This document shows, piece after piece, positions 27,164-64,000 of a stretch of 64,000 nucleotides of DNA. Below the pieces are notes generated by a model that saw only the letters and a program-made list of their open reading frames with translations, ran no database searches and was not told the DNA's origin. The DNA is taken from IMG/VR virus record IMGVR_UViG_3300038825_001395. The stretch is one strand, 5' to 3'. The DNA is from an uncultured virus (IMG/VR IMGVR_UViG_3300038825_001395). Its lineage: Duplodnaviria; Heunggongvirae; Uroviricota; Caudoviricetes. Numbering within the stretch: the first letter of the stretch is position 1; each line of letters starts with the position of its first letter. Position numbers and translations under genes: made by a program.

Positions 27164-27521
27164 CTTTAACTCCTGTATCTCGTTTCAAATTTATTGCAAT
27201 TGCAGTATCACCATCTCTATGTGGCTTTAAATCATTAATTAAAACTCTTGTGCCACCACCGATTCCCATGATTAGTCTATCGTAAATTATACCAGCTTCT
27301 CTTAGTTGTCTTTCTGTTGTTTCTCTCATACCTTCTTTTCTACCAGTGGTCAATATAATCATATGACCAGCCTTATCCCAATCCCATAATTTTTTTAAGG
27401 TTTCAGGTAATGGCCGCATGACTTTTTTATCGAAATCGTAATCACCCATTTCTGATGAATAAGGATAATAACATAAAGTTCCGTCTATATCACAAAATAT
27501 TGTTTTTGGTTTATTATTCAC
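27150..27521 (-). CDS. HAD-family phosphatase
   Basis: FCDIDGTL, LTTGR, RVLIND. Confidence 0.85.
   Translation of the reverse strand: MNNKPKTIFCDIDGTLCYYPYSSEMGDYDFDKKVMRPLPETLKKLWDWDKAGHMIILTTGRKEGMRETTERQLREAGIIYDRLIMGIGGGTRVLINDLKPHRDGDTAIAINLKRDTGVKDVEI
27483..27521 (-). repeat. 39-bp imperfect direct repeat, copy 1 (5' end of HAD gene)
   Basis: 36/39 identical to 29511-29549. Confidence 0.85.
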
Positions 27522-28374
27522 TTTCTAATTCCTTTAAAATATCCTCTTCAGATAAATTTCTATATCTTATTATGTCATAATCAGTTTTTCCTTCTTGATT
27601 ATCAACCATAGCTGGAGTATATGTACTAAATGATTTTTTAACTATATCTGTTGATAATAGTCCTAACTTTCTTAAATGCCACACCATTAAAAAATGATTT
27701 GATATCGTATTCCATTGTGGACATTGACCTGGTAAAGTATATTCATCTATTTTATCAAATAAAGTTGTAAAATTATCCATATTTTCAGAACTAGATGCGA
27801 AAATGTGATCTAATATTTCAATAGGAGTATGTTTTCCCCCATCAGGCCATCCATAAGTAGGTTCATCAGGAAAAATTGGAATATGAAATTTACTATCTTC
27901 ATTCCACCATTCCAATTCATTCATTTTTACCAATTTACTAAAATCAAATGGTTTATTAAAACACAAGTCAAATCTAGCATTAACAACTAAATCATATTTA
28001 AAATTATTCTCTTTTTCATATTCACTTTTAAGTTTCATCACCTCTTTAAATCCATACCACCTACTTTGATATGCAAATACTCTTCTGGTATTTCCATATT
28101 TCAAGTGTTCCGGACATTCAAAGTCAATTTGTGGTATCAATTTCATCTTTTTGGGATTTAATTCTTTTTTGAATTCATTCTCTTTATCTGTTTCCCAACT
28201 AAAAATAAAAATATCTACATCATTTTCATCTACTACATATTTCCTTAAAAATTTAGAAGTGTATCTTAACGCTAATCCTGATAAGTATTTATAATCATCC
28301 TTAGCAGCAGAATCTACATTTTTTTCTGTACCAAATCCCCCAACTAAACCATTTATTGTATAAGCTATTCTCAT
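27514..28374 (-). CDS. Hypothetical glycosyltransferase-like protein
   Basis: DIFIFSWE, YDLVVNARFDL. Confidence 0.55.
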   Translation of the reverse strand: MRIAYTINGLVGGFGTEKNVDSAAKDDYKYLSGLALRYTSKFLRKYVVDENDVDIFIFSWETDKENEFKKELNPKKMKLIPQIDFECPEHLKYGNTRRVFAYQSRWYGFKEVMKLKSEYEKENNFKYDLVVNARFDLCFNKPFDFSKLVKMNELEWWNEDSKFHIPIFPDEPTYGWPDGGKHTPIEILDHIFASSSENMDNFTTLFDKIDEYTLPGQCPQWNTISNHFLMVWHLRKLGLLSTDIVKKSFSTYTPAMVDNQEGKTDYDIIRYRNLSEEDILKELESE

Positions 28375-28377
28375 ATT

Positions 28378-29484
28378 TTACCCTTGTGTTTCATCGTGAT
28401 GTGAAAGTGAAGATACACATTTATTACAAACAGGATGTTTCCAATATTCGCCTTTTCTATGTATATCTCTTAAAAATTTAAGTTCTGGACTTTTCCAAGT
28501 CTCTTCTATAGTTCTCATAACTAACTTACTCTTATCCTTACTTGATTCCAATGGTGATTGTCTCTCACCAATATTTTCAGTTGTAGAATATTTTACATCT
28601 GGTTTTGTGTTACTTTTCAGTTTAGCTACAGATAATTCCGCACCGAAAAAAGTACAACAAGGTAATATATCACCATTGTATCTTATTGCCATATGATTAA
28701 ATGGCTGTGGACACTTAAATTCCTTTATTCCCGCAACCTTAACACCTTCTGTTGGTTTTACAATATTTACCAAATCTTGTATCGCAACAGCATCAACTTT
28801 ATCTTTCCAATACTCAATAAAATCTTCCATCTCATGTTCATTTGTATCTGTTTGGACAAAATTAACTCTAACAGTTGGTAATTCGGATTTCATTTCACTT
28901 CTAATTTTCATAAATCTATTAACATTAGATATTACCTTGTCAAAATTACCACCAACTCTAATTATATCAAAAATTTCTTTAGTAGCAGCATCTAGGGATA
29001 TTTGTAGTCGTGTCAAACCCGAAGTGATAATTTCTTTTGATATTTTTTCAGTTAATAATGAACCATTAGTGCTCATATATATATCAAGAATACCAGCATC
29101 TCTAGCATAAGTTATAAACTTAATTAAATCTTTTCTAATTAATGGTTCATTTATATAATTTAGTCTAATACACTTTAGTCCTTTTTTAACACCTTCATCT
29201 ATAACTTCCTTATAAACTTCAAAATCAAACCAAGTTTCTTTGCCATATTTACCAGTAACTTCTTCACTCCAAGTACACATTGGACACCTAAAATTACAAG
29301 AATAATTTAACTCAAAATCTAATTGAATTGGAAAGTCTGGAACAGGTCCTAACTCATATGACCTTTGCCATAACTCTCTATAGTCATCATAGGCATCAGA
29401 GTCTACATATTTTTTTATTACATCATGTAGATTTTTACTTTCATAAACTCTAGTTATATCTTTTTTATTTTCTGTTCTTGGCAT
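28378..29484 (-). CDS. Radical SAM protein with SPASM/twitch domain
   Basis: CNFRCPMC, NEPL, STNG, ISLDA, CPQPF...GDILPCC, CNKC. Confidence 0.92.
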   Translation of the reverse strand: MPRTENKKDITRVYESKNLHDVIKKYVDSDAYDDYRELWQRSYELGPVPDFPIQLDFELNYSCNFRCPMCTWSEEVTGKYGKETWFDFEVYKEVIDEGVKKGLKCIRLNYINEPLIRKDLIKFITYARDAGILDIYMSTNGSLLTEKISKEIITSGLTRLQISLDAATKEIFDIIRVGGNFDKVISNVNRFMKIRSEMKSELPTVRVNFVQTDTNEHEMEDFIEYWKDKVDAVAIQDLVNIVKPTEGVKVAGIKEFKCPQPFNHMAIRYNGDILPCCTFFGAELSVAKLKSNTKPDVKYSTTENIGERQSPLESSKDKSKLVMRTIEETWKSPELKFLRDIHRKGEYWKHPVCNKCVSSLSHHDETQG

Positions 29485-29498
29485 ACTATAGTTTCTTC

Positions 29499-29549
29499 TT
29501 AAAACATTTTGTCTATATCAAAAAATGTTGTTTTTGGTTTATTATTCAT
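29499..29549 (-). pseudogene. Truncated remnant of the HAD phosphatase 5' end (MNNKPKTTFFDIDKMF*)
   Basis: Matches MNNKPKTIFCDID of 27150-27521. Confidence 0.75.
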
Positions 29550-30471
29550 TGAAAAAATTATCCTTAGATGTATACCAATCTATTAATTTTGGTAAAGTTT
29601 GTTTCAAAGTTCTTGTCGGTAACCAACCCAAAGACCTTAATTTATCACTATTTGATAGATAAATTGGATCTTGAAATAATCTATCATCTACATACTCTAC
29701 ACAATCATTAAAATCCTCTCCCATATCATCACAAATCATTTTTGTAACTTCCAACACAGTATAGGATTCATCCGTAGATACATTGTAAATGTTTTTATTT
29801 ACACCTTTATCCATAACTACTTCAACAGCATCTACAAAATCATCTATGTTTAAAAAAAATCTAACTTGTTTACCAGAACCATGTATTGGTAATTTTTTAT
29901 TATCTTGTAACTTACTAATAAAATAAGGTATTAATTTATCAGGAAATTGCATTGTTCCGTATGTATTATTTAGTCTAACAACTTTCCAATCTAACCCATA
30001 ACAATAACCATAAGCATGTAAAATAGATTCACCACTAGCTTTAGTAGCTGAATATGGATTTGTAGGTAGTGTCATAGAATTCTCATATAAAGGCTTTCCA
30101 TTTCCAATTACTTCATCCGTACTTAAATGTAACAAAGGTGTTTTTGTCTTAATACAAAATTTACTAAGATGATGTATTCCTAAAATATTAGTATCAATAA
30201 AATCCGTTGGTCTTTCAAATGACTCATCGACATGAGTTTCAGCAGCAGAGTTAATTACTAAATCAAAATCAGAATCAAGGTTTTCGTAAACACTCTCATC
30301 TTGAATATTACCAACTATAATTTTAGGATTATATTTTTTAATATTTACTCTGTTCAGACAAGATGTGTGACCACGATTATCTAAAATTACAACATCATAT
30401 TTTGCATCTATAAATCTATTTACTATATGTGAGCCAACAAATCCAAGTCCACCCGTAATTAATATTTTCAC
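29542..30471 (-). CDS. rmlB: dTDP-glucose 4,6-dehydratase-like
   Basis: AAETHVDES, STDEV, NPYSATKA, QFPDKLIP. Confidence 0.85.
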   Translation of the reverse strand: MKILITGGLGFVGSHIVNRFIDAKYDVVILDNRGHTSCLNRVNIKKYNPKIIVGNIQDESVYENLDSDFDLVINSAAETHVDESFERPTDFIDTNILGIHHLSKFCIKTKTPLLHLSTDEVIGNGKPLYENSMTLPTNPYSATKASGESILHAYGYCYGLDWKVVRLNNTYGTMQFPDKLIPYFISKLQDNKKLPIHGSGKQVRFFLNIDDFVDAVEVVMDKGVNKNIYNVSTDESYTVLEVTKMICDDMGEDFNDCVEYVDDRLFQDPIYLSNSDKLRSLGWLPTRTLKQTLPKLIDWYTSKDNFFNE

Positions 30472-31496
30472 TACACTACCTCAACAGTATTTAAATTTTT
30501 AAATATGTTATACCAATATAAACATAGTTTATCATAGTCATATCCATCTATAAATTTCTTTCTGATGTTTTCATTTATCTCAATATTCAGTTCATCAAAA
30601 TTTGATAAAATGTAATCAATTTTTTCTTCTAAATCAGACCAATCGTATTTTACATCAATATATGTTTGACCGGCTTCATATATGTCTGGTATAGTTTTAA
30701 CTAAATCATGATTAGGTTTTATCATTATAGTCCCATACTGCATACATTCAAAATCTCTAAAACAGATTTCACCCATACCAAATGGTGAAAAAGATATTTT
30801 AGAATTCATTAAATTTTTAATATATTCCTCAAATGGTAACCTGTCATAAATCATATTATATTTTGATTTTAAAGGTTCTAATATATTCCATAAACCATTC
30901 CTATGAGATGTGTAAAGATGATCATTTCTACTTTTATGGTCTTCATTGTAATTATGCTTACCTTGAAAAATAGCACATACATCAATAGTTTTATTTTGTT
31001 TTATTGGTTGAAAATTTCTATAATTTTGTACAAGTTGTCCTACATTCCAACCTGTAAATTTTATTCTATTCCACAAGTCATCGGGAATATCATATGATAA
31101 ATCTAAATCACTACCACTACCCCAAAACCATTTATTGTGAGCATAAGGAACTTTATAAGCATCTTGCGATGGCAACATTTGGTTTTTAAACAAGTAAATA
31201 GCATCACTTTTTTCAAAAACTTCATAACCACCCATTAGTGATGTGGAATCCGAACCCTCAAATAAAAAGTAATCACCAGTTACTTTTGATAAATTTTCAA
31301 GTCCATAGTCAATACTATCTTGTAATGTTTTTTTCTTATCAATAAAATCATGCATTCCAATAAATAGATAATCAAAATCATTAGAATTAGTGAATTCAAT
31401 ACTATAGTCCCTCAACATATTTTGAATAAAAAGAAATGGTCTAAAGGTAGGTTCGTTTCTATAAACCGTAGGATTTTGTATTTTTATTTTAATCAT
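30471..31496 (-). CDS. Putative GT-B glycosyltransferase
   Basis: SKISFSPFGMGEICFRDFE. Confidence 0.7.
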   Translation of the reverse strand: MIKIKIQNPTVYRNEPTFRPFLFIQNMLRDYSIEFTNSNDFDYLFIGMHDFIDKKKTLQDSIDYGLENLSKVTGDYFLFEGSDSTSLMGGYEVFEKSDAIYLFKNQMLPSQDAYKVPYAHNKWFWGSGSDLDLSYDIPDDLWNRIKFTGWNVGQLVQNYRNFQPIKQNKTIDVCAIFQGKHNYNEDHKSRNDHLYTSHRNGLWNILEPLKSKYNMIYDRLPFEEYIKNLMNSKISFSPFGMGEICFRDFECMQYGTIMIKPNHDLVKTIPDIYEAGQTYIDVKYDWSDLEEKIDYILSNFDELNIEINENIRKKFIDGYDYDKLCLYWYNIFKNLNTVEVV

Positions 31497-31683
31497 CTAA
31501 AGAAAAATTCTCATTTATAAATTCTTTTACCTCAACCCAACCTTGTCTTGGATATTTACTGTAAATCTTTTTATCACCAATTTTTATTGCTTCCCTCAAT
31601 ACTTCTTTCACTAATTGAACACTCGTATCATTTCCGTGCCCTTCATATGATAATTCTATACCTTGTTTATTTTTATATTTCAT
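31489..31683 (-). CDS. Hypothetical protein
   Basis: 64-aa ORF coupled on both sides. Confidence 0.65.
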   Translation of the reverse strand: MKYKNKQGIELSYEGHGNDTSVQLVKEVLREAIKIGDKKIYSKYPRQGWVEVKEFINENFSLDD

Positions 31684-32315
31684 CTTCGTATCCCACTTAT
31701 TTCTTCATTGTAAAATTTATTTTGTTCTACTTGTCTTTCTATCGTCTTTGGGTGAATGATAGAATACTTATGCTCTGTAGGTAGATGAGCATATGTTTGA
31801 AAACCAACTAGTTGTTCATGAACTGGTTTTTCCCAACGAATGTTTGGTCGGTTACGAAAGATGCGACCTTGCCAATCAGGATAATTTATCCAACCTCTTT
31901 CATTTATTTTATACCCATACATTCTACAATGTTCTTCTGTTATACCTTTTACAGTATTTACTCTTGGTAAAAAAATTAAGTCAACTGGATTACCTTCAAG
32001 TATCTCGTGGATGTCTGCCATAAACCAACGTGAAATCATCTCATCAGCATCTAAGTTAAAACTATAATCACCACTACACATTTTCTTTAGATAGTTTTTT
32101 TGTGAACCAAAATCTTGTAAAAGGTTTCTTTGCTCAAATACTATGTTCTCAGTAGACACATAGAAATCTAAGATAGTTTTTGTTTTTTCATTGTCTGAAT
32201 AATCATCAAGGATAACTATCTCATCTTGTGGTTGTTTATACTTAATTAAAAACTTTAGTAGCTTTTCAAGAGTAGTAGTTTCATTGTGGGTTAATATGGA
32301 ATAACTAATTTTCAT
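31680..32315 (-). CDS. Glycosyltransferase family 2
   Basis: ISYSILTHNE, LDDYS, NLDADE, KPVHE. Confidence 0.9.
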   Translation of the reverse strand: MKISYSILTHNETTTLEKLLKFLIKYKQPQDEIVILDDYSDNEKTKTILDFYVSTENIVFEQRNLLQDFGSQKNYLKKMCSGDYSFNLDADEMISRWFMADIHEILEGNPVDLIFLPRVNTVKGITEEHCRMYGYKINERGWINYPDWQGRIFRNRPNIRWEKPVHEQLVGFQTYAHLPTEHKYSIIHPKTIERQVEQNKFYNEEISGIRR

Positions 32316-32321
32316 TGATAT

Positions 32322-32350
32322 AATTTACTATAAAATATTGATAAAGTCAA
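32322..32350 (-). promoter_or_regulatory. sigma70-type promoter TTGACT-17-TAAATT, probably leaderless
   Basis: -35 overlaps a TGA stop; ATG 7 nt after the -10. Confidence 0.7.
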
Positions 32351-32805
32351 GTGATAAATTGAGTATTTATCTGTGTAACCTTTAATGATGTTAACTTGGT
32401 AAGTTTATATGACCTGTATGCTTCTTTAAAATATTTATCAACTGATATGATGTCACCATAAAATCTTTTAGGTGTCATAGCACTTCTTTTCTTTGGATTA
32501 GCAATCTGTAATCTAAAGTATTCTTCTTTTAAACCAATTAAGTTTTCTATTTCATCCGTTTCTGTTTTTTTAAAGTCAGCAACTTGAAATAACTTTTTTA
32601 ACTTAGTTGGATTAAGATAGTTTATATTTAAACCTTCTATGTTTTTACTTTTCTTATCCGTATTTAGATAAAGTAGAATAGGTCTAGGATCCATAACACC
32701 TGGTTCTGAGTAATTAAATGTAATTATCATACCAGGTAGTAACCTACCTTGACCTATTGTTTGAACAGATTTAACTATTCGTTTGTTGTTGTATCTGCTC
32801 GCCAA
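32347..32805 (-). CDS. Possible T4 gp2-like DNA end-protector protein
   Basis: PGMIITFNY...DPRP...EGLNINYL resembles the gp2 pattern. Confidence 0.45.
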   Translation of the reverse strand: MASRYNNKRIVKSVQTIGQGRLLPGMIITFNYSEPGVMDPRPILLYLNTDKKSKNIEGLNINYLNPTKLKKLFQVADFKKTETDEIENLIGLKEEYFRLQIANPKKRSAMTPKRFYGDIISVDKYFKEAYRSYKLTKLTSLKVTQINTQFIT

Positions 32806-33187
32806 GAACTTTCTCCAATTTTTCTACCATTTTAAAAGCATCCGAAAATGTAGGCATTACTACTTCTGTAGCAGGATCTGCTTGAGCATAAACTCTCCAC
32901 TTTAATCCATTATCTACTAGTGGAACAACCATATAATTTTCTGTTGTGAATACAGATGGCGCCCAATACCTACCTTGATTTGTTTCAACACATACTTCTT
33001 TAAAGTCATCAGGAAATGGTTTGATATGAGTTTTCATAGTTTTATTAGAAGCATAACCACAGGCTAAGCACTGCATATTCTGTTCTTCATCACCCAATAA
33101 AACCATTGACTCTAATATCTCACCACCAGCAACAATACACTCTTTTGTATCATTTGGACATTTGACCTTTAATATCATATCATCCAT
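32771..33187 (-). CDS. Hypothetical Cys-containing (Zn-ribbon-like) protein
   Basis: CPND...C, CLACGY. Confidence 0.65.
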   Translation of the reverse strand: MDDMILKVKCPNDTKECIVAGGEILESMVLLGDEEQNMQCLACGYASNKTMKTHIKPFPDDFKEVCVETNQGRYWAPSVFTTENYMVVPLVDNGLKWRVYAQADPATEVVMPTFSDAFKMVEKLEKVLGEQIQQQTNS

Positions 33188-34542
33188 TATGTTACCTTCT
33201 TTAGTTTAGGTAGTTTTATTTTTGTTGGTTGTGAAGTTTTACTACCTACTTTTTTAAGTTTAGGTAGTTTTAAACTAACAGGTTTTGGAACTGAATTTAA
33301 CACATTATCTATAATCTTATTAAATTGTGTTGCCATAGCAGTTAATGAAAACTCTCTTCTGTTTTTCTTACCCAAACGAGTAGCTTTCTTTTGTATTAGT
33401 TTTCTTTTCTTATGAAAAGTTCTAATCTTTCTAACTACATCTGCTTCATTTACATCAAACCATTTAGATGGTTCTATAATAATAGGATCCCATAGAACTG
33501 ATTTAGGAACTGGCTTAATAAACCCATCAATTAACATAGATTCTGAGTCTGTAAGAAAGTCAAGATGACCACTCCACTTACTAGCAATTACAGGTAAGTC
33601 ACAACAACTAGCTTCTAACATTGGTCGTCCAAAACCTTCACCATGAGTACAAGTAATAAAAGCACCAATCTTTGGGTGGTTGTAAAGTGTTGACATTTCT
33701 TCAATAGTAAAATCACCATGTATTAAATAAATATTAGGTAACTCAACTCCCTTAAACATATCTTTAACTGATTGTATTCTTTTCTTTATATTAGCCTTAT
33801 CAAGAACACTAAAGTTAGCACCATTGGTTTTAAGAACAAGTGCTGGTGCATTAGGAATATTAGCAAAAGCTTTTAGAAAAGACTTAATCATAACACCGAT
33901 GTTTTTCCTATCTTCCCCAAAACCTTGTTGTCCCCATTGTCCAACATGAAGATAAGCAAACTCTTCTTTGATAAGTTCATCTAACTCTTCATAAAGACCT
34001 TTTTCCAATTCATGTTTTTGTTTTGGGCAATACACATCTGTATCTACACCTTCAAATAAAACTGAAATAGGTTTTTCATTTTTTATCTCACCGACTTTTT
34101 GTTTTTGTCCGTTAGGAGCATCTTGCATCTTATCAAATGTACATCTGTTAAATGTAGCTGCTGTAAACTTAGATGGAACTATATTAAGGTTCATCTTGTT
34201 CATACCCTCTAAAAATTGAGGAGATACAACATCAGTTTCTACACCAGCAGTTATACCAATATTTATCTTACCACCTTGTATAAACTCATTAGGTATTCTA
34301 ATATCAATAACAATATCAGGTTGACTTGTTATTTTATCCTGTGTTGTGAAACTATTTAACAACCTCTGATGTCTTTTGACTTCAGGTCGTAAGTGATTTC
34401 TAGGTGTTGAACCCCACTTGACATCTAAACATTTAATGTCTAAATCTTCTCTATCCATAATAGAGTAATAAATAGAACGAGCATGGTCACCATACCCACT
34501 ACGGGTATTAAAAGGTGCAATCATAACTACCGAGCGTTTCAT
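33187..34542 (-). CDS. GT4-like glycosyltransferase with basic repeated tail
   Basis: SGYGDHAR, RKNI, HGEGFGRPMLEA; tail carries KLPKLKKV twice. Confidence 0.9.
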   Translation of the reverse strand: MKRSVVMIAPFNTRSGYGDHARSIYYSIMDREDLDIKCLDVKWGSTPRNHLRPEVKRHQRLLNSFTTQDKITSQPDIVIDIRIPNEFIQGGKINIGITAGVETDVVSPQFLEGMNKMNLNIVPSKFTAATFNRCTFDKMQDAPNGQKQKVGEIKNEKPISVLFEGVDTDVYCPKQKHELEKGLYEELDELIKEEFAYLHVGQWGQQGFGEDRKNIGVMIKSFLKAFANIPNAPALVLKTNGANFSVLDKANIKKRIQSVKDMFKGVELPNIYLIHGDFTIEEMSTLYNHPKIGAFITCTHGEGFGRPMLEASCCDLPVIASKWSGHLDFLTDSESMLIDGFIKPVPKSVLWDPIIIEPSKWFDVNEADVVRKIRTFHKKRKLIQKKATRLGKKNRREFSLTAMATQFNKIIDNVLNSVPKPVSLKLPKLKKVGSKTSQPTKIKLPKLKKVT

Positions 34543-35930
34543 ACTGCCTCCATCGTGTATTTTGGTTTTGGTTTCCAATTATCAAATGCCCCATCCATAG
34601 AACTAATAAACTCTTGTCCCATAGCTTTTGATGTCATTAGATTTTCTTTACAAAACTCAGATCCTAATGAACCAAGTCTTTTTCTTTCATCTCTACCTAA
34701 ATCATATAGTTTCTTTAACTGAACAGAAGCATCTTCTGGCTGACATCTATCATCAAAAATATAAGGTGTCATAGGTGAACCTTGAAGTGAACGATTAGTT
34801 GGATAAACAGGAAATACCCACTCACCATGTTCAGTATAAGTTCCTTTATGATTAGAACCTAACTCAACATAATCTTCAGGTGTTAGTAGTTCTTTAGCAA
34901 ACCCACTACCATCTGGTGCCACGTTCTTTTTGTAAAAACCACATTGGTCTTGTAATCCACCAGTAACATTAACAATAATTGGTGTTCCAACGGTAAGTGC
35001 TTCAGCACTACCTAATCCAAATCCCTCATTACTAGCCAAGTTAATATAAACATCAGCAGAGTTAAATAATAAATTCATGTCATTATCATTAAATGGCCGT
35101 CCATCTGTTTCATATGTAAAACAAACATCATATTCAGGACATAAGTGTTTATGAACTCTTGGTAAATCTGTTCCGTTATCATCAACTGGTGAACAATGAA
35201 ATATCAACACACACTCTTCTCTTTGTTCAGGTGTTAAACCATCCATAAAGTATTTATATGCCAGTAAAACATCACCAGGTTGTTTTCTTCTGATGTTTCT
35301 ATTACTATAAAGTATCTTAAATTTCTTGTTAGCGATACCGTGTTTAGAATTAAAATCAACCAAAGAAACATTATCATCTTCTACCTTATTAAATCTTCTT
35401 TCTGATATGCCATGTGGCACATAAGTTATTTGCCAATCTTCATAATCAGGTAATAATCTTTTATTGATACCATAGGTTTGTTTTGATATACCCATCAACA
35501 AATCAGAACTCTTGTAGTAGTTTGTATTGTATTGTGGATCTGGTAAATCATCCCATATATTATAATAAAAGATAGGAATATCTCTACGGATTTCTGCTTC
35601 CATGTTATAAAACCAAATCCAAAATCTTGGATCGGTGTAGTGAAGTATAGCATCTGGTTTTTCCATAGCAATAACATCTCTAAGTAAATCTTCATTACCA
35701 TACCCATCAACTGGATATATCCGTAAGTAACCATCTTTTATACCAAAATCTTTTTGGAGATGTTCTGACATATCAACAATCTTTCCAGCTTCAGGATGTT
35801 TAATAGCTCCACCCATCTGAACCCAATCATATTTATGTAATGTCTCAAATACAATATCTTTTGATACAGTAGCTACTCCACTATGCATCCGTAAATCATC
35901 GGACATCAGTAGTATCTTTTTCTTAGCCAT
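34539..35930 (-). CDS. GT4-like glycosyltransferase
   Basis: YVPHG, NRNIRRK, ASNEGFGLGSAEA. Confidence 0.9.
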   Translation of the reverse strand: MAKKKILLMSDDLRMHSGVATVSKDIVFETLHKYDWVQMGGAIKHPEAGKIVDMSEHLQKDFGIKDGYLRIYPVDGYGNEDLLRDVIAMEKPDAILHYTDPRFWIWFYNMEAEIRRDIPIFYYNIWDDLPDPQYNTNYYKSSDLLMGISKQTYGINKRLLPDYEDWQITYVPHGISERRFNKVEDDNVSLVDFNSKHGIANKKFKILYSNRNIRRKQPGDVLLAYKYFMDGLTPEQREECVLIFHCSPVDDNGTDLPRVHKHLCPEYDVCFTYETDGRPFNDNDMNLLFNSADVYINLASNEGFGLGSAEALTVGTPIIVNVTGGLQDQCGFYKKNVAPDGSGFAKELLTPEDYVELGSNHKGTYTEHGEWVFPVYPTNRSLQGSPMTPYIFDDRCQPEDASVQLKKLYDLGRDERKRLGSLGSEFCKENLMTSKAMGQEFISSMDGAFDNWKPKPKYTMEAV

Positions 35931-36422: not shown

Positions 36423-36839
36423 TTAATTAATAACAAGGGTTTTTTTTCCAAATTTTTTAGCATAATTTATGGTTGACATAGAACCTTTAGACTCAACTCC
36501 TCTTGGAACAAATGAAACAACATATTGTGAATAAGCAGCTATGATTTTGTTTCTAACATAATAGTTTTTTACGCTGTATGGTTTGTTATAATCTTTTTTA
36601 TCTTTTGGACAATATAAATTCCAATTTTCATGTTGAGGTGGAAACTCTTGGTATTCTAATCCCAATTCTAAAGCATACTTTTTAGCATAATAATCAGCGC
36701 CTGTTTTACAACCACCACTAACTATTATAGTATCCGAACCTTTTTCATTCTTTAATTTAAAAATAAAATCTTTTATCTTTTTTCGGTTCTCGTATTTTCT
36801 ACTACCTACTATTGCTACTCTTAAAGTATCTTTCCCCAT
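36423..36839 (-). CDS. SLOG (DprA/YspA-like) protein
   Basis: VAIVGSR, IVSGGCKTGAD, RNKII, SKGS. Confidence 0.8.
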   Translation of the reverse strand: MGKDTLRVAIVGSRKYENRKKIKDFIFKLKNEKGSDTIIVSGGCKTGADYYAKKYALELGLEYQEFPPQHENWNLYCPKDKKDYNKPYSVKNYYVRNKIIAAYSQYVVSFVPRGVESKGSMSTINYAKKFGKKTLVIN

Positions 36840-37684
36840 TCACAATGCTCCGTTTTTACAAACTCACAGAACTTACAAGCACTACCAGGAGAAGCGTTAT
36901 ATGTTCTGTCTGTTTTATGGTTTCCCTTTTCATCAAAGATAGCTTCACGGAATTCTGTAAAAGCTTTCATAGTTTTATTTACACTAACTTTACCATTAGC
37001 AGGCTCAAACCTTTGTAACCTACTGATAGGAAAGTCACTCTGTTTTGCTATCTTTCTTTTTAATATCAAGAACTCCACAGATATTTTATCCAATGGAACA
37101 TCAAACTTTTCTGAATAAAATTGTTTGTAAAGTAATAACTGAGCTTTCTTATAGAAGTTCTTCTTATGGTAATCTGTCCAACTTCTAGTGGAAGTTTTAA
37201 GGTCAATAATAGTTATCTTACCTGATATTTTATTTCTTATCACAACATCAAGAAAACTTTTTAACTCTACGTTCTCTTGTAGTTCCATAGTTATAGGCAA
37301 CTCAATACCAACTAACTCATAGTTCTTTTTCATAAAATACTTACCACGATGTTTTCTAAAGTGTTCAAGTATAGCCAATCCATCTTGGTAAAACTCTACC
37401 ATCTCGTCTTGTGTACACGGTAAAGTTTCTTGACTTTCTTTTATAAGTTTAAACTCACCCATCATTTCAGTTTTCAACATACCATTTAAGTCAAGTGCTT
37501 CAGCAGCCACAATAGACTTACCATACATCACCGTGAGATATTCTTGTATCACGGTGTGCATAGCAGTTCCAAAAAGAGTATGTATGTTACCGGTAAAAGT
37601 TCCTAGTTTGTCAATGTAGCGAAGTTTCCATTTAAGGTTACATTCACTATAAGAAACAAACTGACTATGTGATACATGTCCCAT
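36821..37684 (-). CDS. PD-(D/E)XK RecB-family exonuclease
   Basis: SHSQ...C, FGTAMH, FLD, IIDLKT, QLLLY, CKFCEF...C. Confidence 0.88.
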   Translation of the reverse strand: MGHVSHSQFVSYSECNLKWKLRYIDKLGTFTGNIHTLFGTAMHTVIQEYLTVMYGKSIVAAEALDLNGMLKTEMMGEFKLIKESQETLPCTQDEMVEFYQDGLAILEHFRKHRGKYFMKKNYELVGIELPITMELQENVELKSFLDVVIRNKISGKITIIDLKTSTRSWTDYHKKNFYKKAQLLLYKQFYSEKFDVPLDKISVEFLILKRKIAKQSDFPISRLQRFEPANGKVSVNKTMKAFTEFREAIFDEKGNHKTDRTYNASPGSACKFCEFVKTEHCEWGKIL

Positions 37685-38295
37685 TATATTATCTCGTCAA
37701 TCATCCCATATTTTAAACAAGTTTGAGCATCCCACATTAAATCGTGTTTTAGCATTTCATCAAGTTTTTTCATAGGTAATTTAGTGTATTGTTTATAAAT
37801 GTCTTTTATTGTTTTCATCATTAAATCTAAGTTTTTCTTTTCATCATCAAAGTTAGAGTATGTTCCCCAAAAGTTACTGCTTAATTGGTGGATTAACATA
37901 TAAGAGTTTCTACTCATAAACCTTCTCTTACCGACCACACTTAAAAATGTTCCAGCACTAGCAGAGAATCCATCAACATAAGTTTCCACATCAACTTTAC
38001 ATCTTAACATGGTATCCATAGAAGCAATACCACTTACTATACTTCCACCACCTGAATTAATATGTATCTTAATAGGTGGTGGTAATATACCAAGAGTGTT
38101 TGATAAAGTCAAGGACTTTCCTTCTAATTCACCAATTTTTTTGTTTAACTCACTACAACTATTACGGTTAACACCAGCATAAAAATAAATCTTATTGTCT
38201 TGAACTGAAATATGTTTTTCAGCAGCATCGCCATTAGATTTTCTAACTGGTGTTTCTTTTTTAGCACCCCAATATTTTTCCATTATTTTCCCCAT
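37684..38295 (-). CDS. ClpP-like protease
   Basis: INSGGG, SASAGT, LIHQ, GMIDEII. Confidence 0.88.
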   Translation of the reverse strand: MGKIMEKYWGAKKETPVRKSNGDAAEKHISVQDNKIYFYAGVNRNSCSELNKKIGELEGKSLTLSNTLGILPPPIKIHINSGGGSIVSGIASMDTMLRCKVDVETYVDGFSASAGTFLSVVGKRRFMSRNSYMLIHQLSSNFWGTYSNFDDEKKNLDLMMKTIKDIYKQYTKLPMKKLDEMLKHDLMWDAQTCLKYGMIDEII

Positions 38296-41355: not shown

Positions 41356-43890
41356 TTAAAAAAACCTTTCAATTGAGTTATTTTTATCAACCGGCATATC
41401 CCAAGACATAGCGTCATAAAACATCTGTATCTTCTTCTTTAGGGCTTTATCAAATAACTTGTCTCTATCTACATACTGATTGATAAAATCTATGATTTGT
41501 TTAGGATCATCATAACCTTTGTAAGCAAGTCCATCTATTTTAAGTGGATTTTCTTTTAGATAAACCCAGCGAACTTTATTACCATTTGATATTGCTTCAT
41601 GTTTGTTTACCTTAAAGTATCTCAATAAGTCATTGTAAATAACCGAAGCTTTGGTATGAACAGGAGCACCCTTTTCCATCTCGGTAAATATACTTTTACT
41701 ATTAGCACCAAATCCACTTCTAGTTTTTTTCTTGGTGTATTTTTGGATACCCTTTACACCGGTTGGAAGAGCAATCTTATCCAACTCTTCATTTTTTAGA
41801 TTATTCTTAAAGTCAAGGATAAACTCATCTATTCTTTCCTTTGGAACTTTAGCAAGAATAGCTTTTAAAACCTTAGTCATAAAGTCACGGAATGCTGGTG
41901 GAAATGAACTACGGACAATATCTAAACCTTTAACATCAAGTTTTTCACAAGGTGTCCCACCATCATTAATAATCCATTGGCCATATCTTTTCTTGGTAAC
42001 CCAAAAAGCAGCCTTAGCAATCATCTCTTGTTTAATCTCAAACCGATGGTCACCTTGTATATTTAAGAACTTACTACTGAAATAGTTATAAGATTTATTG
42101 ATGTAAGATTGAACCTCATCGGCAATATCCAATATCTGTTCTGTCATAAACTTTTCATCTTTAACATCAGCATTTGGAAATCTGTTTTTAACAAGTGGAA
42201 GAGCAGAATAGAAAACCGAGTCTGTATCTGTGTAGATACAATAATCTTTATCCGTTTTTAAGATTTTATTATAATAACTATTTGTAACCTTTTCGGTAAA
42301 CTGAATAAGTTTCTGACCTGTGGTGGTTGTCCCTTCAGCGTTATCAATATCATAAAATCTAAATACGGTTAAGCCCAATACTCCGTACAAACTATTAAGT
42401 AAAATCTTTTGTACCAGCTGCCTTCTGTTGAAGTAACCATGTAATTCTTGGTCACCTTCGGTTTCGTACTTCTTTGCTAGTTTTCTATACTCTACTCTCT
42501 CATTAAACCATTTCTCAAGTATCGCCGGTATAACACCTTTCTTACTTAGGTCATACAAGACTCCATTTGATGAAATGGATATTTGATTTTTCCCAAAGAA
42601 ATCTTTGAGTTCCCCACTTGTAAAGGTTCTGATAACTTTCTTATCCTTCTCCACAGAATAATGTTTATCTTCACCTCTAATAAATTCTTCAGCATCCCAA
42701 CCGTTTATCTTACCTATCTTTGTCTCAGGCGACATATTCAGAGACATAATAATACTTGGATACATAGAAGTTAAATCTAAATCAAACACCCAATCATAAC
42801 AACCAGGAACGGGTGATTTCACATAAGCACCACTAAACCTACCTTCTGAACCATCATAACTAGCAGTAGGTAATTTACTTGGAGCAACTAAACCTAAACT
42901 ACGAAGATAAACTAACATAGCACCTTCAATATATCTTGAACTAAAATATACCTCTTCATAAGGTATTCTACCCAAGTGAGATACAGCACGAGCCAAGTCT
43001 AACAACTTGAACTTTTGGTCAAGTGCTTTAACTATCTCAACATCATTTAAGTTATATTCAATAAACTTATCAATATCATCTCTGTATAAATCATCAAGTG
43101 TTCCTTCATACTCAACCTTACCTATACCAACTTCAATAGTTCCGATATGGTCTAATCTATAACTTGATTGCTGGGTGTATGTAAACTTTCTATATAAATC
43201 CATATAATCTAATGAACTTACACCAGCAATACGATACATCTTTTTGTTTGGGTTATACTTTACGATTTGTATTGGTGAAAGGGCGTTAGCAAACTCCTCA
43301 CCTAAAACTTTTGTTATTCGGTTATATAGATAAGGAATATCAAAACCATTTGTATTCCAACCTGTAACACAAGTTGGTTGGACATCTATCCAATACTTTA
43401 AAAACTCTTGTAATAATTGACTTTCGGTTGTGTAGAAGCGAATATCAACACCATCTTTAATATTATCTTGACCTTCACCTAAAACATATACACGATATTT
43501 CTCATCATGTTTGGTATACATAGCAACCGAAGTAACTTTGTTTGCTGCTTTGGATGGTTCAGGAAAACCATCTGTAACCTCTACCTCAATATCAAAGAAT
43601 AGTTCTCGGTGGTCTTTTGACGGTTCATCAGAATCTTCATATCTATCTAAAAGAATACGAGTATCTAATGGAATATCCGACTCAAATACTCTACCAGTTC
43701 TGAAATCTTCTTCTGTCCAATATGTAACTTTCTTTAACTTATCTCCGTAGATAGAGCGGTATTGACCACTTCCATCACGAACATAAGCATAATTCTTAAA
43801 TATAAAGTTTTGATAACCAGCAACATCATCCCAAAGATGAACTTCTACTTGATTACCACCTCTTTTCTCACACCAAATATTCTGATAAAT
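41356..43890 (-). CDS. Family B DNA polymerase (gp43-like), 844 aa, probable ATT start
   Basis: Frame is open 123 codons upstream of the tracked ATG and includes ExoI FFDIEV; also GWNTNGFD, DLTSMYPS, KILLNSLYG, YTDTDS, KKRY; clamp-binding-like tail SIERFF. Confidence 0.92.
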   Translation of the reverse strand: MYQNIWCEKRGGNQVEVHLWDDVAGYQNFIFKNYAYVRDGSGQYRSIYGDKLKKVTYWTEEDFRTGRVFESDIPLDTRILLDRYEDSDEPSKDHRELFFDIEVEVTDGFPEPSKAANKVTSVAMYTKHDEKYRVYVLGEGQDNIKDGVDIRFYTTESQLLQEFLKYWIDVQPTCVTGWNTNGFDIPYLYNRITKVLGEEFANALSPIQIVKYNPNKKMYRIAGVSSLDYMDLYRKFTYTQQSSYRLDHIGTIEVGIGKVEYEGTLDDLYRDDIDKFIEYNLNDVEIVKALDQKFKLLDLARAVSHLGRIPYEEVYFSSRYIEGAMLVYLRSLGLVAPSKLPTASYDGSEGRFSGAYVKSPVPGCYDWVFDLDLTSMYPSIIMSLNMSPETKIGKINGWDAEEFIRGEDKHYSVEKDKKVIRTFTSGELKDFFGKNQISISSNGVLYDLSKKGVIPAILEKWFNERVEYRKLAKKYETEGDQELHGYFNRRQLVQKILLNSLYGVLGLTVFRFYDIDNAEGTTTTGQKLIQFTEKVTNSYYNKILKTDKDYCIYTDTDSVFYSALPLVKNRFPNADVKDEKFMTEQILDIADEVQSYINKSYNYFSSKFLNIQGDHRFEIKQEMIAKAAFWVTKKRYGQWIINDGGTPCEKLDVKGLDIVRSSFPPAFRDFMTKVLKAILAKVPKERIDEFILDFKNNLKNEELDKIALPTGVKGIQKYTKKKTRSGFGANSKSIFTEMEKGAPVHTKASVIYNDLLRYFKVNKHEAISNGNKVRWVYLKENPLKIDGLAYKGYDDPKQIIDFINQYVDRDKLFDKALKKKIQMFYDAMSWDMPVDKNNSIERFF

Positions 43891-43917
43891 AACTAACCTC
43901 TACATTTTCAATACTTT

Positions 43918-43956
43918 AATATACACAAAAAACCCTATACAAGTCAAGGGTTTTTT
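43918..43956 (-). promoter_or_regulatory. Promoter TTGACT-18-TATATT within a 10-bp inverted repeat
   Basis: Arms AAAAAACCCT 43927-43936 and AGGGTTTTTT 43947-43956. Confidence 0.7.
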
Positions 43957-43960
43957 TGAT

Positions 43961-43986
43961 AAAAGGGGCGAAATTAATCGCCCCCT
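43961..43986 (-). terminator. Intrinsic terminator after the TonB-dependent receptor
   Basis: GGGGCGA-TTAATT-TCGCCCC-TTTT. Confidence 0.85.
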
Positions 43987-43998
43987 AGTTTTATCATT

Positions 43999-46728
43999 TT
44001 AGAAATTGACAGATAGTCCTAAGTTAAAGTTTCTTGGTGTTCCAAGAAATACTTCAGCATTATGAGCAGCGTGAACTTTGTCACCATACCCATTATATTG
44101 ACTATTATCAACAGCGTCTTGAACATATACTTCGTCAAGAACATTAAATAAATGACCACTAATGGTCATATCCAAACCAGCAATCTCTGGTAGTTTGTAA
44201 GATAGATGTAAGTCTAACTTGCCGTAGGATGGAGTTTTCCATACTTGAGCTCTGTCAGCATCACCACTAACCTCACGAGAATCAGGACTCCAATCAGCGT
44301 AGTGATTGTCGTACCATCTGTAAAGACCTTGTACATTTAGACCTTTGATTGGCTTTAATGTTAATCCACCGACATATGCTGTCTGTGGCATATCACCAAC
44401 TTTTAAGTCTTTAAGAGCATATTCATACTCTGTTGTAGTTTGACCTATTACTTGTCCATCATCATTATATTCCATCTCCTGATAATCACCTTTAGCATCT
44501 CCACCAAAATACCAATTACCAGTACTGATAGCAACATCTAATGATACCATTTCGTGAAGAGCAACTTTGGTTTCAATTTCAACACCACTATGGCTTTGAT
44601 TTACACCAGTTAGATAAATGATGTCTGTGTCACCTGAGTCACCTTGACCTGTATTTACAGATTTGGTTAGGTTTCTATCTTTCCATTGAGTGTTGTAGTA
44701 ACTACCTTTGATAGCAACTAACTCACTCTTATATTCTCCACCGATTTCGTTGGAAATGAACTTCTCATTGTCTGGATTCTGTGAAACAGTTCCGTCATAA
44801 GCAATTACATTATCCAAAATTGGTGGTTTCTCAACATAGCCAATGTTAGCAAATGCTGAAAGTCTATCATCAAGATTGAATCTACCACCACCTTTTACTT
44901 GGAAAGTAGTAATAGCATCAGCCTCAACAACTTCTTTATCAACTGAGAAATGGTCTTGATAGGTATATCCAATAGTGGATACTCCACCCATACCATATAA
45001 GTTGAACTTAGCGATGTCGTATTTACCTTGTATAAAAGCACCAAACCAATCAACTGTGGTTTCATTGTGGTAAGCGATAATATCACCCAAACCAACTACT
45101 TTACCATCAGCAGCATTGTCATCAGCGTAATCTACATAGTAGTCTCCACCAAGTAAGTCACGAACTTCTCTAGCGTGTTCAATACCAGCAGTTCTCCAAT
45201 CAATACCGACTTGAACTTCCAAGTCATCACTAACTTCATAGTTTAACTTTGAAATTAAACCAAGTGTGTTTTGTCTATTGATTGAGTTTCTTAGAATACC
45301 AGTTGAACGGTTTTCGGTTTCAGAGAAAGAAGAATCTACATTAGCAGAGTTCTGTGCAATCTCAGCATTCCAATCCCATATCCAAGGTGAACTTGCATAC
45401 CATCTTTCACCTTCAATAGCAGGAGCTCTTGAAACACTACCATAAGTACCAGTTCCACCACCTGAACCACCACTCCAATAAGCAACGGAACTTAGTCTAA
45501 CTTGTTCATTTACATCATAGAAATGATTTAAGTTAACTAACGGTTTGTGAAAAAAGTTCTCTCTTTCATTTAAGAAATCAGAACCAAACCTATCCTGTGT
45601 TTTATCACCATACATATAAAAGTATTGTTTACCTTTATAAGAAGGATCAACAGGAGCCCAATTCTGATTGTAGAACCTACCAGCTTCAGTTTCAAACTTC
45701 TCACCAGCTACATAAGCAGAATCATTATACCCGTCAATACTTCCAGCTAACTCTTGTGAGTAGGTAGCAATATTTTGTTTGTATAAGTTCTGTCCGTGTC
45801 TTTGGGGAGCGCCGATACCATATAGTTCGACTCTCTGTTTGTCACTTATGGCGTAACTAGCACCAGCATAATAAGCCCAAGCATCTGTCCAAGTTCCATC
45901 TATAAGACCATCACCAGTTTTACGAACAATAGTTCCACTAAGTGCTAGTTTATCAGCGATTAAACCTGAGTTATAGTTTAAAGTAGTTTTTAGAAAACCA
46001 CCAGCTCCAGCTTCTTGTTTAAACTTACCACCTTTCTCCTGAGCAGCAGGATCGGTAATAATGTTCATAGTTCCACCAATAGATGGTGTAGCAAGATTTA
46101 CAGCTGATAGACCTCGTTGCATCTGAATGGAAGAAGTAGCATCACCTACCCCATCCCAATTAGACCAATAAACCCATCCGTTCTCCATATCGTTTTGGGG
46201 AACACCGTTTATCATAACTGCCACATTTCGTTGGTTGAAACCTCTTACATTGATACGAGCATCACCCGCACCACCACCTTGTTGAGTAGCATATACACTT
46301 GGTGTAGTGTTCAGAATCATTGGAATATCTTGACTACCAAGACGAACTTCCATCTCTTCTTTAACTATTGTAGTGTAAGCCACAGGTGTTGTTTCATCAG
46401 CCCTAGAAGCAAGAACTTCTAATGCTGACATTGATACTGCATCAACTTTAAGATTAAAGTCAGCAACAGCATCACCCTCTCCAACAACTACAGATATAGT
46501 TTCTGAAGAGTATCCAATAAAAGAAGCAGTAACATCGTATGTCCCAGCAGGTACATCTTTGATAAGATAACTACCTTCGCCGTTTGAAACTGAACCAAGT
46601 TCTGTTCCTACTACAACGACATTTGCTCCTTGAAGTGGTTTTTCACTACTTACAACTCCTGAAATAGATTGAGCAAACAATCCTGTCATCATCACAAGTA
46701 GTGTTATTAGATTACGTTTATTTCTCAT
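43999..46728 (-). CDS. TonB-dependent outer-membrane receptor with N-terminal carboxypeptidase-regulatory-like domain
   Basis: Signal peptide, ISGVV...PLQGANV, plug INVRGF...INGVP, beta-barrel pattern, C-terminal Phe (LGLSVNF). Confidence 0.93.
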   Translation of the reverse strand: MRNKRNLITLLVMMTGLFAQSISGVVSSEKPLQGANVVVVGTELGSVSNGEGSYLIKDVPAGTYDVTASFIGYSSETISVVVGEGDAVADFNLKVDAVSMSALEVLASRADETTPVAYTTIVKEEMEVRLGSQDIPMILNTTPSVYATQQGGGAGDARINVRGFNQRNVAVMINGVPQNDMENGWVYWSNWDGVGDATSSIQMQRGLSAVNLATPSIGGTMNIITDPAAQEKGGKFKQEAGAGGFLKTTLNYNSGLIADKLALSGTIVRKTGDGLIDGTWTDAWAYYAGASYAISDKQRVELYGIGAPQRHGQNLYKQNIATYSQELAGSIDGYNDSAYVAGEKFETEAGRFYNQNWAPVDPSYKGKQYFYMYGDKTQDRFGSDFLNERENFFHKPLVNLNHFYDVNEQVRLSSVAYWSGGSGGGTGTYGSVSRAPAIEGERWYASSPWIWDWNAEIAQNSANVDSSFSETENRSTGILRNSINRQNTLGLISKLNYEVSDDLEVQVGIDWRTAGIEHAREVRDLLGGDYYVDYADDNAADGKVVGLGDIIAYHNETTVDWFGAFIQGKYDIAKFNLYGMGGVSTIGYTYQDHFSVDKEVVEADAITTFQVKGGGRFNLDDRLSAFANIGYVEKPPILDNVIAYDGTVSQNPDNEKFISNEIGGEYKSELVAIKGSYYNTQWKDRNLTKSVNTGQGDSGDTDIIYLTGVNQSHSGVEIETKVALHEMVSLDVAISTGNWYFGGDAKGDYQEMEYNDDGQVIGQTTTEYEYALKDLKVGDMPQTAYVGGLTLKPIKGLNVQGLYRWYDNHYADWSPDSREVSGDADRAQVWKTPSYGKLDLHLSYKLPEIAGLDMTISGHLFNVLDEVYVQDAVDNSQYNGYGDKVHAAHNAEVFLGTPRNFNLGLSVNF

Positions 46729-62063: not shown

Positions 62064-63089
62064 TTAGGATAGGGANNNNNNNNNNNNTTTTTTACTTAAA
62101 ATCTGATAAGATATGTTTATATCAAATAGTCTTGGCAATACTCTTAAAGCATCCCAATCACTTTCACCAGGCACATTATATGATATTGATTTAATAAATC
62201 CAAATTGACCTTGTTTTTTATCTCCAATGTGAGCCATATAAAGTTCTGTAAATGGTGGTTTCATTCTAGTTTGACTATCTGAATTGTCGTCTAAATCATA
62301 CTCAGGATAAGCTAAGCTTGTTAATTTTTTTAGCTTATCATACATCAATTTCTGTTCTGTAAAATTAGCAGGATGAATCTTTAGATTAAAACTTATATCC
62401 CTATCAGCTCTTTCATACATATAGACAGGCTCACTTCTACCAATATAATTTGTAGGTGTGAATGATGGACTAACATTTTCTGTTATACCAGTTACGAATC
62501 CTCTAAAGTAAAGTAAGTTATTATTTCTTAAATCCTTTATCTTTACATAAAAATCACCTTTTTTATTTGGAGCTATTTGGTCATCAACTTCAGATGTTGT
62601 GACCGGCTGTGAAGAAACATAATCAATATAATTAGTTTCACCAGGTCCTCTTGATAAGTCTATGAAAGGTGTTGGTTTTCCAATAACAGGTACTTGAACT
62701 GTCTCACTTAGTTCTCTAGCAGTTCGTACCTTTAAAGCACTTATTGTTTTATTAGCTTTATCAATTATAAATTGAGACACATTACCACCACTACTAGGCA
62801 CATCAGGTATTTTATTAAGGGCGTCATCAACTTCTTTTTCCAATTTCTTTGGTGGATTATCCCCAAGATTTTTAAAAGGTAATCCTAATGTAGCCCTTAA
62901 AGAATAATCTAAATCAATTAAAGAAGTAATATCTCCTATATCTCTATCTGTACTAGCAGCAATTATTAAATTTTCAGTTGCCTTTACCGCGTTATCAAGT
63001 GTAATATTACGTTTAACTTCACTAGCTTTCTTTTTAGCGTTATTTATACTTAAATTATTATATGCTGATTTTAAATTTTCTAATGCCAT
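62064..63089 (-). CDS. Putative baseplate/tube-initiator protein; 3' end uncertain because of an N gap
   Basis: YIGRSEPVYMY...RDISFNL, GFIKSISY, LPR. Confidence 0.6.
   Translation of the reverse strand: MALENLKSAYNNLSINNAKKKASEVKRNITLDNAVKATENLIIAASTDRDIGDITSLIDLDYSLRATLGLPFKNLGDNPPKKLEKEVDDALNKIPDVPSSGGNVSQFIIDKANKTISALKVRTARELSETVQVPVIGKPTPFIDLSRGPGETNYIDYVSSQPVTTSEVDDQIAPNKKGDFYVKIKDLRNNNLLYFRGFVTGITENVSPSFTPTNYIGRSEPVYMYERADRDISFNLKIHPANFTEQKLMYDKLKKLTSLAYPEYDLDDNSDSQTRMKPPFTELYMAHIGDKKQGQFGFIKSISYNVPGESDWDALRVLPRLFDINISYQILSKKXXXXSLS
62076..62087. other. Assembly gap (12 N)
   Basis: Run of N. Confidence 1.
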
Positions 63090-63091
63090 AA

Positions 63092-64000
63092 TTAACCTCT
63101 AGCCGAAAGTGATTCTGTTCCACTTCCATCAAATTCTACCTCTGCAAGTAATGGAATATCCCTTCCACTAATACCTCCAGTTGAAACATTAATATTCATA
63201 TTCCCACCACCAACATTCATTGAACCAGCTGGTCCAGATTGAAAATCATTTACAGATATCGGATTGGTTGTTGCCAACACAGAATCTCTTGGGTTTAAAC
63301 TAAATACACCAGCAGGTCCCATCATAGTTGTTATACCACCAGGTCCTGATTTGAAATCGTTTACACCTCTAACACCTTGTGATATGCCACTTACTAAATT
63401 ACCCAATGGAGTTAAAGCAAAATTAACAACTTTTGCTACTGCCATTAGAATAGGACCAACCGTATTAGCAAGAGCAACACCAAATATTTTTAATTCGTTC
63501 ATCGTAGCAGTTAGTTCGGACATAGCATCTTTACCGATTATATCGGCAAATGATTTTGCTGTTTCTCCAGCCAACATATTTGACTTATCTTGATTGGCAA
63601 CCATCTTTGCCATATCAGCTACACTAACACCAATAGAATCAGCAAGAGCTTTTCTTTGTATTACATTTAATTTGTTAAACTCCGCTTCACTACCTAACTG
63701 ATTAACAATGTTAGACATCGCTCCTTCTATATCATTATCAAGTGCTAATTCTCTAGCCTTTTGAAAGTTAAGTTGTTTTCCTATTAATACTGATGCTTCT
63801 ACCTCTTTATTTATAGAGTTTTCAAAATCCAATAAACCCTCTGCTATCTTTGAAGTAGTATCTAATGATAATCCTAAAGCTCTAGCTTGAACGGCCGCTT
63901 TAGCAAGATTGTCTCCACCATCTTCAGAAAACATAGCGAATGCTTCTGAAGCACCAGCCATATCTTTTAATACAGCAGACGGATTAACTCTGTTCATACC
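63092..64000 (-). CDS. Tape measure protein, C-terminal part (truncated by window)
   Basis: Ala/Leu-rich helical sequence (LAKAAVQARALG, ALADSIGVS), upstream of baseplate genes. Confidence 0.7.
   Translation of the reverse strand, partial: GMNRVNPSAVLKDMAGASEAFAMFSEDGGDNLAKAAVQARALGLSLDTTSKIAEGLLDFENSINKEVEASVLIGKQLNFQKARELALDNDIEGAMSNIVNQLGSEAEFNKLNVIQRKALADSIGVSVADMAKMVANQDKSNMLAGETAKSFADIIGKDAMSELTATMNELKIFGVALANTVGPILMAVAKVVNFALTPLGNLVSGISQGVRGVNDFKSGPGGITTMMGPAGVFSLNPRDSVLATTNPISVNDFQSGPAGSMNVGGGNMNINVSTGGISGRDIPLLAEVEFDGSGTESLSARG

Follow-up and report, generated by a model that had tools for sequence, protein, structure and literature searches.

Probable AUU initiation of a gp43-like DNA polymerase gene in an uncultured phage, with a start codon that varies among close relatives

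The uncultured virus record IMGVR_UViG_3300038825_001395 (Caudoviricetes), analyzed here as one stretch of 64,000 nucleotides that we call the window, has a G+C content of 31.8% and carries all of its long genes on the minus strand. Among them is a gene for a family-B DNA polymerase of the gp43 type, which we read as 844 codons running from an ATT codon to a TAA stop (positions 41356 to 43890, minus strand). Like gp43 of phages T4 and RB69, which belongs to the same protein family, it is set in a T4-like replication module, here comprising a class-II ribonucleotide reductase, a DnaB-like helicase, a 5'-3' exonuclease, RecA/UvsX-like and gp32-like proteins and clamp-loader subunits, among others. 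The translation matches Pfam DNA_pol_B (PF00136; E = 6.7e-37, 127.8 bits) and the exonuclease domain DNA_pol_B_exo1 (PF03104; E = 8.6e-23, 81.4 bits), each against a curated cut-off of 23, and a sequence search of PDB returned the RB69 gp43 structures (E = 1.6e-74). The strings FFDIEV, DLTSMYPSII, KILLNSLYG and YTDTDS are all present and align with the motifs of RB69; we take them to be ExoI (DxE), motif A (DxxSxYPS), motif B (KxxxNSxYG) and motif C (YxDTDS), respectively. With both domains above threshold and the catalytic motifs in place, the protein is a family-B polymerase of the T4/RB69 gp43 type.

The 5' end of the gene has no ordinary start codon. Read down the minus strand from 43905 to 43879, the letters are ATG TAG AGG TTA GTT ATT TAT CAG AAT, and the polymerase frame is open from the TAG (43902-43900) to the TAA stop at 41356. 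Counted from the ATT, 123 codons pass without an ATG, GTG or TTG; the first in-frame canonical ATG is codon 124 (43519 to 43521, minus strand). The ExoI motif (43582 to 43599, minus strand; residues 98 to 103 from the ATT, with D100 and E102, aligned to FDIEV of RB69 gp43) lies inside this startless part. The window has 70 minus-strand frames that run 80 codons or more from stop to stop; the startless run is 126 codons in the polymerase frame and at most 15 in each of the other 69, so that the gap exceeds what chance would give. Public gene calls begin at the ATG of codon 124, and the public record of this allele is a 721-amino-acid protein without ExoI, found on 16 contigs. The polymerase gene is real and whole, and gene finders drop its proofreading front end; the 721-residue call could be mistaken for an exonuclease-deficient enzyme. 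A first-pass annotation made from the letters of the window had drawn attention to the startless 123 codons, to the ExoI motif within them and to a GAGGT 5 nt before the ATT, all of which the letters confirm.

That annotation had also allowed for misread letters at 43888 to 43905, and these hold up. Sequencing runs were compared as contigs: all sampled words of 43500-44300 are present in 14 runs from nine studies (2017-2025), and Logan contigs of three runs (X1, X2 and X7; three studies, depth 7 to 10) span the start with 0 differences. The string ATG-TAG-AGG-TTA-GTT-ATT is shared by a second, diverged lineage (L024, L025, L054, L073) whose upstream sequence is different; of its first 125 polymerase residues, 119 are identical to those of the window (6 differ), and synonymous divergence is 0.60. 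A count of five loci with the string in a second, diverged lineage includes L088, L102, L106 and L118. The ATT is not a sequencing error.

The first 94 polymerase residues are unaligned in the PDB search, so the N terminus is not fixed by the RB69 match; its position is set instead by alignments to an isolate and to metagenomic relatives. Microcystis phage Mel-JY01 is the nearest isolate in the phage collection (polymerase identity of 45.5%), and its annotated polB start, ATG TAT AAA AAT ATC, stands codon for codon opposite the ATT TAT CAG AAT ATT of the window. IMG/VR yielded 76 related loci (72 to 100% identity). Of these, 48 are matched as far as the 5' end, and each has ATG, TTG or ATT facing the ATT of the window, with non-coding sequence and indels that are not multiples of three upstream of that codon. 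A degenerate pattern for codons 2 to 9 was then run on a viral and a metagenome collection, which overlap, and gave 50 rows in the former (ATG 29, ATT 14, TTG 7) and 58 in the latter (ATG 32, TTG 15, ATT 8 and 3 chance non-polB rows). These three chance rows (L140, L147 and L170), which have stops right after the motif, were removed from the counts. Pooled over both collections, the distinct polB loci or 5' regions number 67, of which 46 have ATG, 14 TTG and 7 ATT. The candidate start codon at 43888 to 43890 (minus strand) thus lies where its homologues begin, as the first-pass annotation had supposed, but the codon itself is not conserved; neither do all close relatives have ATG, since TTG and ATT also occur among the 67.

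Selection on the region between the ATT and the first canonical ATG points the same way. For codons 2 to 124, the ratio of non-synonymous to synonymous polymorphism (pN/pS) is 0.07 to 0.12 in 10 informative pairs, and L040 and L041, which both have ATT, differ by 9 synonymous and 3 non-synonymous changes (ratio of 0.08). This purifying selection, which extends to a pair in which both members lack a canonical start, argues that the startless part is translated in ATT lineages.

The Shine-Dalgarno (SD) sequence GAGGT lies at 43896 to 43900 (minus strand) and is separated from the ATT by a 5-nt spacer, TAGTT (43891-43895); scored against the standard anti-SD motif, it forms a duplex of -6.5 kcal/mol at a spacing of 4 to 5. 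Duplexes of -4.5 kcal/mol or stronger occur within 20 nt of the start in 49% of 65 window genes, compared to 14% of 500 random positions, an excess indicating that the phage uses SD sites. The gene at 62064 to 63089 (minus strand) has the ribosome site TAGAGGTTAATT (63090-63101) followed by ATG, and the polymerase has the near-identical TAGAGGTTAGTT followed by ATT. Relatives were compared as distinct 25-nt contexts, with rows of shorter flanks dropped. All six ATT contexts have a GAGG/GGAG core, a duplex of -6.5 to -7.9 kcal/mol and a spacing of 4 to 5 nt. The 10 TTG contexts have a median duplex of -6.0 kcal/mol and a spacing of 5 to 10 nt (median of 5.5), two of them with weak SDs, and the 24 ATG contexts a median of -5.5 kcal/mol with a spacing of 9 to 13 nt in 22. 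This pattern is suggestive of weak start codons being paired with a well-placed SD, whereas ATG mostly goes with a distant one.

At this locus, a conserved N terminus without a canonical start, a codon opposite the start of homologues and an SD at working distance coincide, as would be expected of AUU initiation. ATT occupies the family's start position, and purifying selection maintains the allele, which turns up again across several lineages and studies. We therefore consider it likely, from the alignments, the selection on the startless codons and the well-placed SD in six of six ATT contexts, that translation of the gp43-like polymerase starts at the ATT at 43890, behind the SD, as the first-pass annotation proposed. 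In the mechanism that we favor, a short unstructured leader would be transcribed from the polymerase gene's own predicted sigma-70-like promoter (TTGACT-18 nt-TATATT; 43918 to 43947, minus strand), which matches the consensus at 10 of 12 positions and is kept in most relatives. Use of this promoter would put the 5' end of the leader about 20 nt before the ATT. The GAGGT would place the host 30S subunit 5 nt upstream of the ATT, and the initiator tRNA would read AUU as a near-cognate start, giving an 844-residue enzyme complete with its proofreading site. Per mRNA, the ATT allele would yield less polymerase than ATG or TTG alleles, with the loss partly offset by the close SD.

Several points weigh against this reading. 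The anti-SD and the behavior of initiation factor IF3 were assumed to be standard and may not be those of the host. The link between codon and spacing is drawn from roughly a dozen cassette types of shared ancestry and is no statistical proof of compensation. The X1, X2 and X7 contigs are each marked as a possible origin of the window and so may not be fully independent of it. Canonical-start alleles exist at strain level, so that ATT is not required: two public 844-residue proteins (P0007 and P0010) differ from the window polymerase at one residue besides the first, where they have M and the ATT codes for I. Lastly, a suppressor tRNA could be encoded outside the 64-kb window, which would favor the use of the upstream ATG. 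That ATG (43905-43903) and the TAG that follows it (43902-43900; together 43900 to 43905, minus strand) are both in frame with the polymerase, so that if translation began at 43905 and the TAG were read as an amino acid by suppression or recoding, the product would be five residues longer. The first-pass annotation had offered such amber readthrough as another possible start. It is barely credible here, because TAG is an ordinary stop of this phage (the 70 frames end in TAA 43 times, TGA 20 times and TAG 7 times), no other window gene is interrupted or needs an internal TAG read through, a scan found 0 tRNAs in the 64-kb window, four of the six ATT contexts have no such ATG, and no SD precedes the one at 43905.

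Another alternative is that the start is simply damaged: a truncated polymerase without proofreading would be made from the ATG at 43521, or no polymerase would be made, and the genome would survive by co-infection or as a short-lived variant. Gene finders do call the 721-residue form, near-identical proteins with canonical starts exist, and AUU is a poor start in reporters (10.1101/063800). We regard this as very unlikely given the purifying selection on the startless codons, seen also within the L040/L041 pair, the appearance of ATT at four places on the polB tree and in seven distinct 5' regions, the presence of the exact stretch in runs of nine studies spanning 2017 to 2025, and the well-placed SD in every ATT context. 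The ATG-TAG might alternatively act as a minigene that feeds or gates the polymerase through start-stop coupled reinitiation, in which ribosomes load at the ATG at 43905, stop at the TAG and restart at the ATT 9 nt on. The pair is in frame and overlaps the SD that would hold the ribosome, and start-stops of Escherichia coli bind ribosomes and modulate host genes (10.1101/520783). Of 53 distinct contexts, 38 have a leader ATG that opens an open reading frame (ORF) of 1 to 4 codons ending 3 to 12 nt before the polymerase start; in most relatives of the ATG type and several of the TTG type, the leader ORF has 4 codons and stops 3 to 8 nt before that start. In L040 and L041, moreover, a real upstream gene of 107 amino acids contains GGGAG and ends at a TAG 3 nt before the polymerase ATT, a classical coupled layout that shows some ATT alleles placed for termination and reinitiation. 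Nevertheless, ATG-TAG itself occurs in only two of the six ATT contexts (the window type and the L088 type), the others having AAG-TAG (L158), AGG-TAG (L183), ATA-AGG-GAG (L089 group, 11 rows) or a different arrangement (L083 type), which makes the SD (T)AGAGGT, and not the ATG, the conserved element. The 15 contexts without a leader ATG often have ATA or ATT instead. By the position of the predicted promoter, the ATG at 43905 would be only about 4 to 7 nt from the 5' end of the transcript, and ATG followed by purines is a common context of ribosome sites elsewhere in the window. Reinitiation through the ATG-TAG is therefore improbable, and the minigene suggested in the first-pass annotation as an added control does not stand as a conserved element.

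Returning to initiation at the ATT itself, the ATG-TAG appears to be an incidental by-product, an old leader ATG that met the TAGAGGT form of the SD. Bacterial start-stop ORFs such as yecJ and hslR likewise have an ATG directly before a stop (10.1101/520783); they carry an SD-like sequence of their own and are located within genes, whereas the phage ATG-TAG has no ribosome signal of its own, lies in a leader and is not conserved. The polymerase start is neither a case of recoding nor a conserved start-stop element. The 4-codon leader ORF common to most relatives of the ATG type and several of the TTG type reads ATG GGG AWK TTA TAA and lies 20 nt upstream of the polymerase ATG in, e.g., L090 and L095. 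In the unrelated cassettes L116, L131 and L154, there is also a 4-codon ORF, with its stop abutting the polymerase start. At positions 2339-3000 of L040, and also in L041, two small inserted genes (112 and 107 amino acids) separate the promoter-hairpin from the polymerase.

The lability of the start codon is a property of the polymerase gene. For a polB tree (IQ-TREE), 47 full-length sequences (46 loci and the window) were reduced to 36 distinct ones and, with Mel-JY01 as outgroup, gave 37 rows; four partial loci and the first three columns of the alignment were left out. On this tree the start codon changes 8 times over all states, with at least 4 changes involving ATT and 4 involving TTG, and 0 of 200 shuffles gave a total as low as 8. 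Across the same loci, the start codon of each of four downstream genes is invariant (ATG in 71/71, ATG in 71/71, ATG in 65/65 and GTG in 62/62), which makes the variability specific to the polymerase; in a fifth downstream gene there are 54 ATG, 2 GTG and 3 rows that are probably misaligned. A comparison of L024 (ATT) with L026 (ATG), which encode near-identical proteins, shows how such alleles may arise. Their DNA differs at 11 positions in the first 150 nt, at 1 in the next 150 and at 0 from 300 to 1499, with 6 further differences at 1500-1649 and 0 after that; the clustering in the first 150 nt identifies a 5' recombination tract between the two. Judged from these sequences, part of the start-codon turnover is exchange and not new mutation. 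We infer that the polymerase start region is a variable cassette, with ATG, TTG or ATT at differing SD spacing, that is swapped by recombination.

The sequence upstream of the gene is also structured and variable. The -35 hexamer of the predicted promoter is in the loop of a hairpin, AAAAAAACCC...GGGUUUUUU (43927 to 43956, minus strand, by folding), and next to it lies a terminator-like hairpin, GGGGGCGA...TCGCCCC followed by a U-run (43957 to 43996, minus strand, by sequence and folding), which comes after the upstream gene. Together the two intergenic hairpins fold at -30.8 kcal/mol (z of -6.49). No second copy of the promoter-hairpin was found in the 64-kb window at up to 3 mismatches. Directly upstream, at 43999-46728 (minus strand) and within the replication module, is a 909-amino-acid TonB-dependent-receptor-like gene with CarboxypepD_reg and Plug domains, which is present in 36 of the 76 related loci (65 to 99% identity); in others the polymerase is directly adjoined by the reductase gene. 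The start codons that relatives have for the receptor gene were set aside, as tblastn extrapolation was noisy. From its domains, the receptor gene looks like an unusual phage-carried outer-membrane transporter. In the phage collection, it matches only unannotated metagenomic records, at less than 30% identity. In an RNA-library run (X16, depth 18.7), a contig over 43780-44089 represents a TTG-type relative and covers the intergenic region with both gene ends, with 17 letter differences and 7 gaps relative to the window over the start; it may stem from carried-over DNA or from read-through RNA, and contigs cannot show transcription starts.

This arrangement resembles the promoter-early stem-loop (PeSL) cassettes that mediate shuffling in T4-type phages (PMC2839356), in that a sigma-70-like promoter and a stem-loop precede the SD and start in a plastic, recombining region. 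It differs from them in that the motif has a single copy in this 64-kb window. Gene 43 of T4 starts at AUG, and T4 gp43 represses its own translation at an RNA operator. At the window polymerase start, in contrast, there is no operator-like hairpin: the region has no stable fold (-4.6 kcal/mol, z of +0.66) and no RNA structure or operator was found in it, with no match in Rfam beyond two sub-threshold ones (20.3 and 14.4 bits, where the gathering scores are 50 and 44).

The closest parallels to the polymerase start are bacterial. In E. coli, infC (encoding IF3) and pcnB [poly(A) polymerase I] likewise combine AUU with an SD on an enzyme whose amount may need limiting, and 10.1101/063800 gives these two as the only confirmed AUU-started genes when it was written, with AUU starts reaching about 1 to 2% (0.02 to 3%) of AUG in E. 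coli reporters. Near-cognate starts such as AUU and AUA are policed by IF3 (PMC9723500). In infC the AUU is conserved and serves as an IF3 sensor, whereas in the phage polymerase the codon is polymorphic (ATG/TTG/ATT) among close relatives. In Staphylococcus aureus, cvfC1 (AUU) and ccpN and infC (AUA) also pair a weak start with a strong, start-proximal SD, and AUU/AUA starts behind extended SD motifs reach about 10% of the AUG level (PMC13009471). Those starts are conserved across species; in the phage, what stays constant is only the pairing of codon with SD spacing, and the SD has a 5-nt core that is not an extended one. By its sequence features, the polymerase would work like infC, pcnB and the S. 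aureus AUU/AUA genes. Our searches of one literature library, which used specific wordings, returned no paper that describes a phage DNA polymerase starting at ATT, and the gene would be a well-supported natural case of AUU initiation outside these few bacterial examples.

By analogy with these systems, the ATT allele probably has a lower polymerase output, and translational throttling of polymerase dosage, as put forward in the first-pass annotation, is plausible. That ATG, TTG and ATT alleles coexist speaks against any strict requirement for low dosage, and that ATT always comes with a well-placed SD speaks for selection on expression. The ATT allele may represent either adaptive dosage control or tolerated drift in an often-recombining region. 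We speculate, as a tentative and on balance doubtful extension, that the region could act as a recombining expression dial, in which start codon, SD spacing and leader ORF or upstream coupling hold or switch polymerase dosage, perhaps matching hosts that differ in their ribosomes or IF3. If so, an abundant marine phage group would provide a natural allelic series for the tuning of translation initiation. Within one wild phage population, the start of a replication gene switches together with SD spacing while its neighbors stay fixed, which offers testable material on polymerase dose.

Elsewhere in the window, the run of genes at 27514-35930 (minus strand) is of a sugar-modification type, with a radical SAM/SPASM protein, an NAD-dependent epimerase/dehydratase and three or four glycosyltransferases. 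The record nearest to the window genome (G001) has no polymerase. A ClpP-like protease gene (37684-38295, minus strand) and a PD-(D/E)XK nuclease gene (36821-37684, minus strand) adjoin the clamp-loader genes, and an N stands at about 62076 (minus strand), 25 nt upstream of an ATG at 62051.

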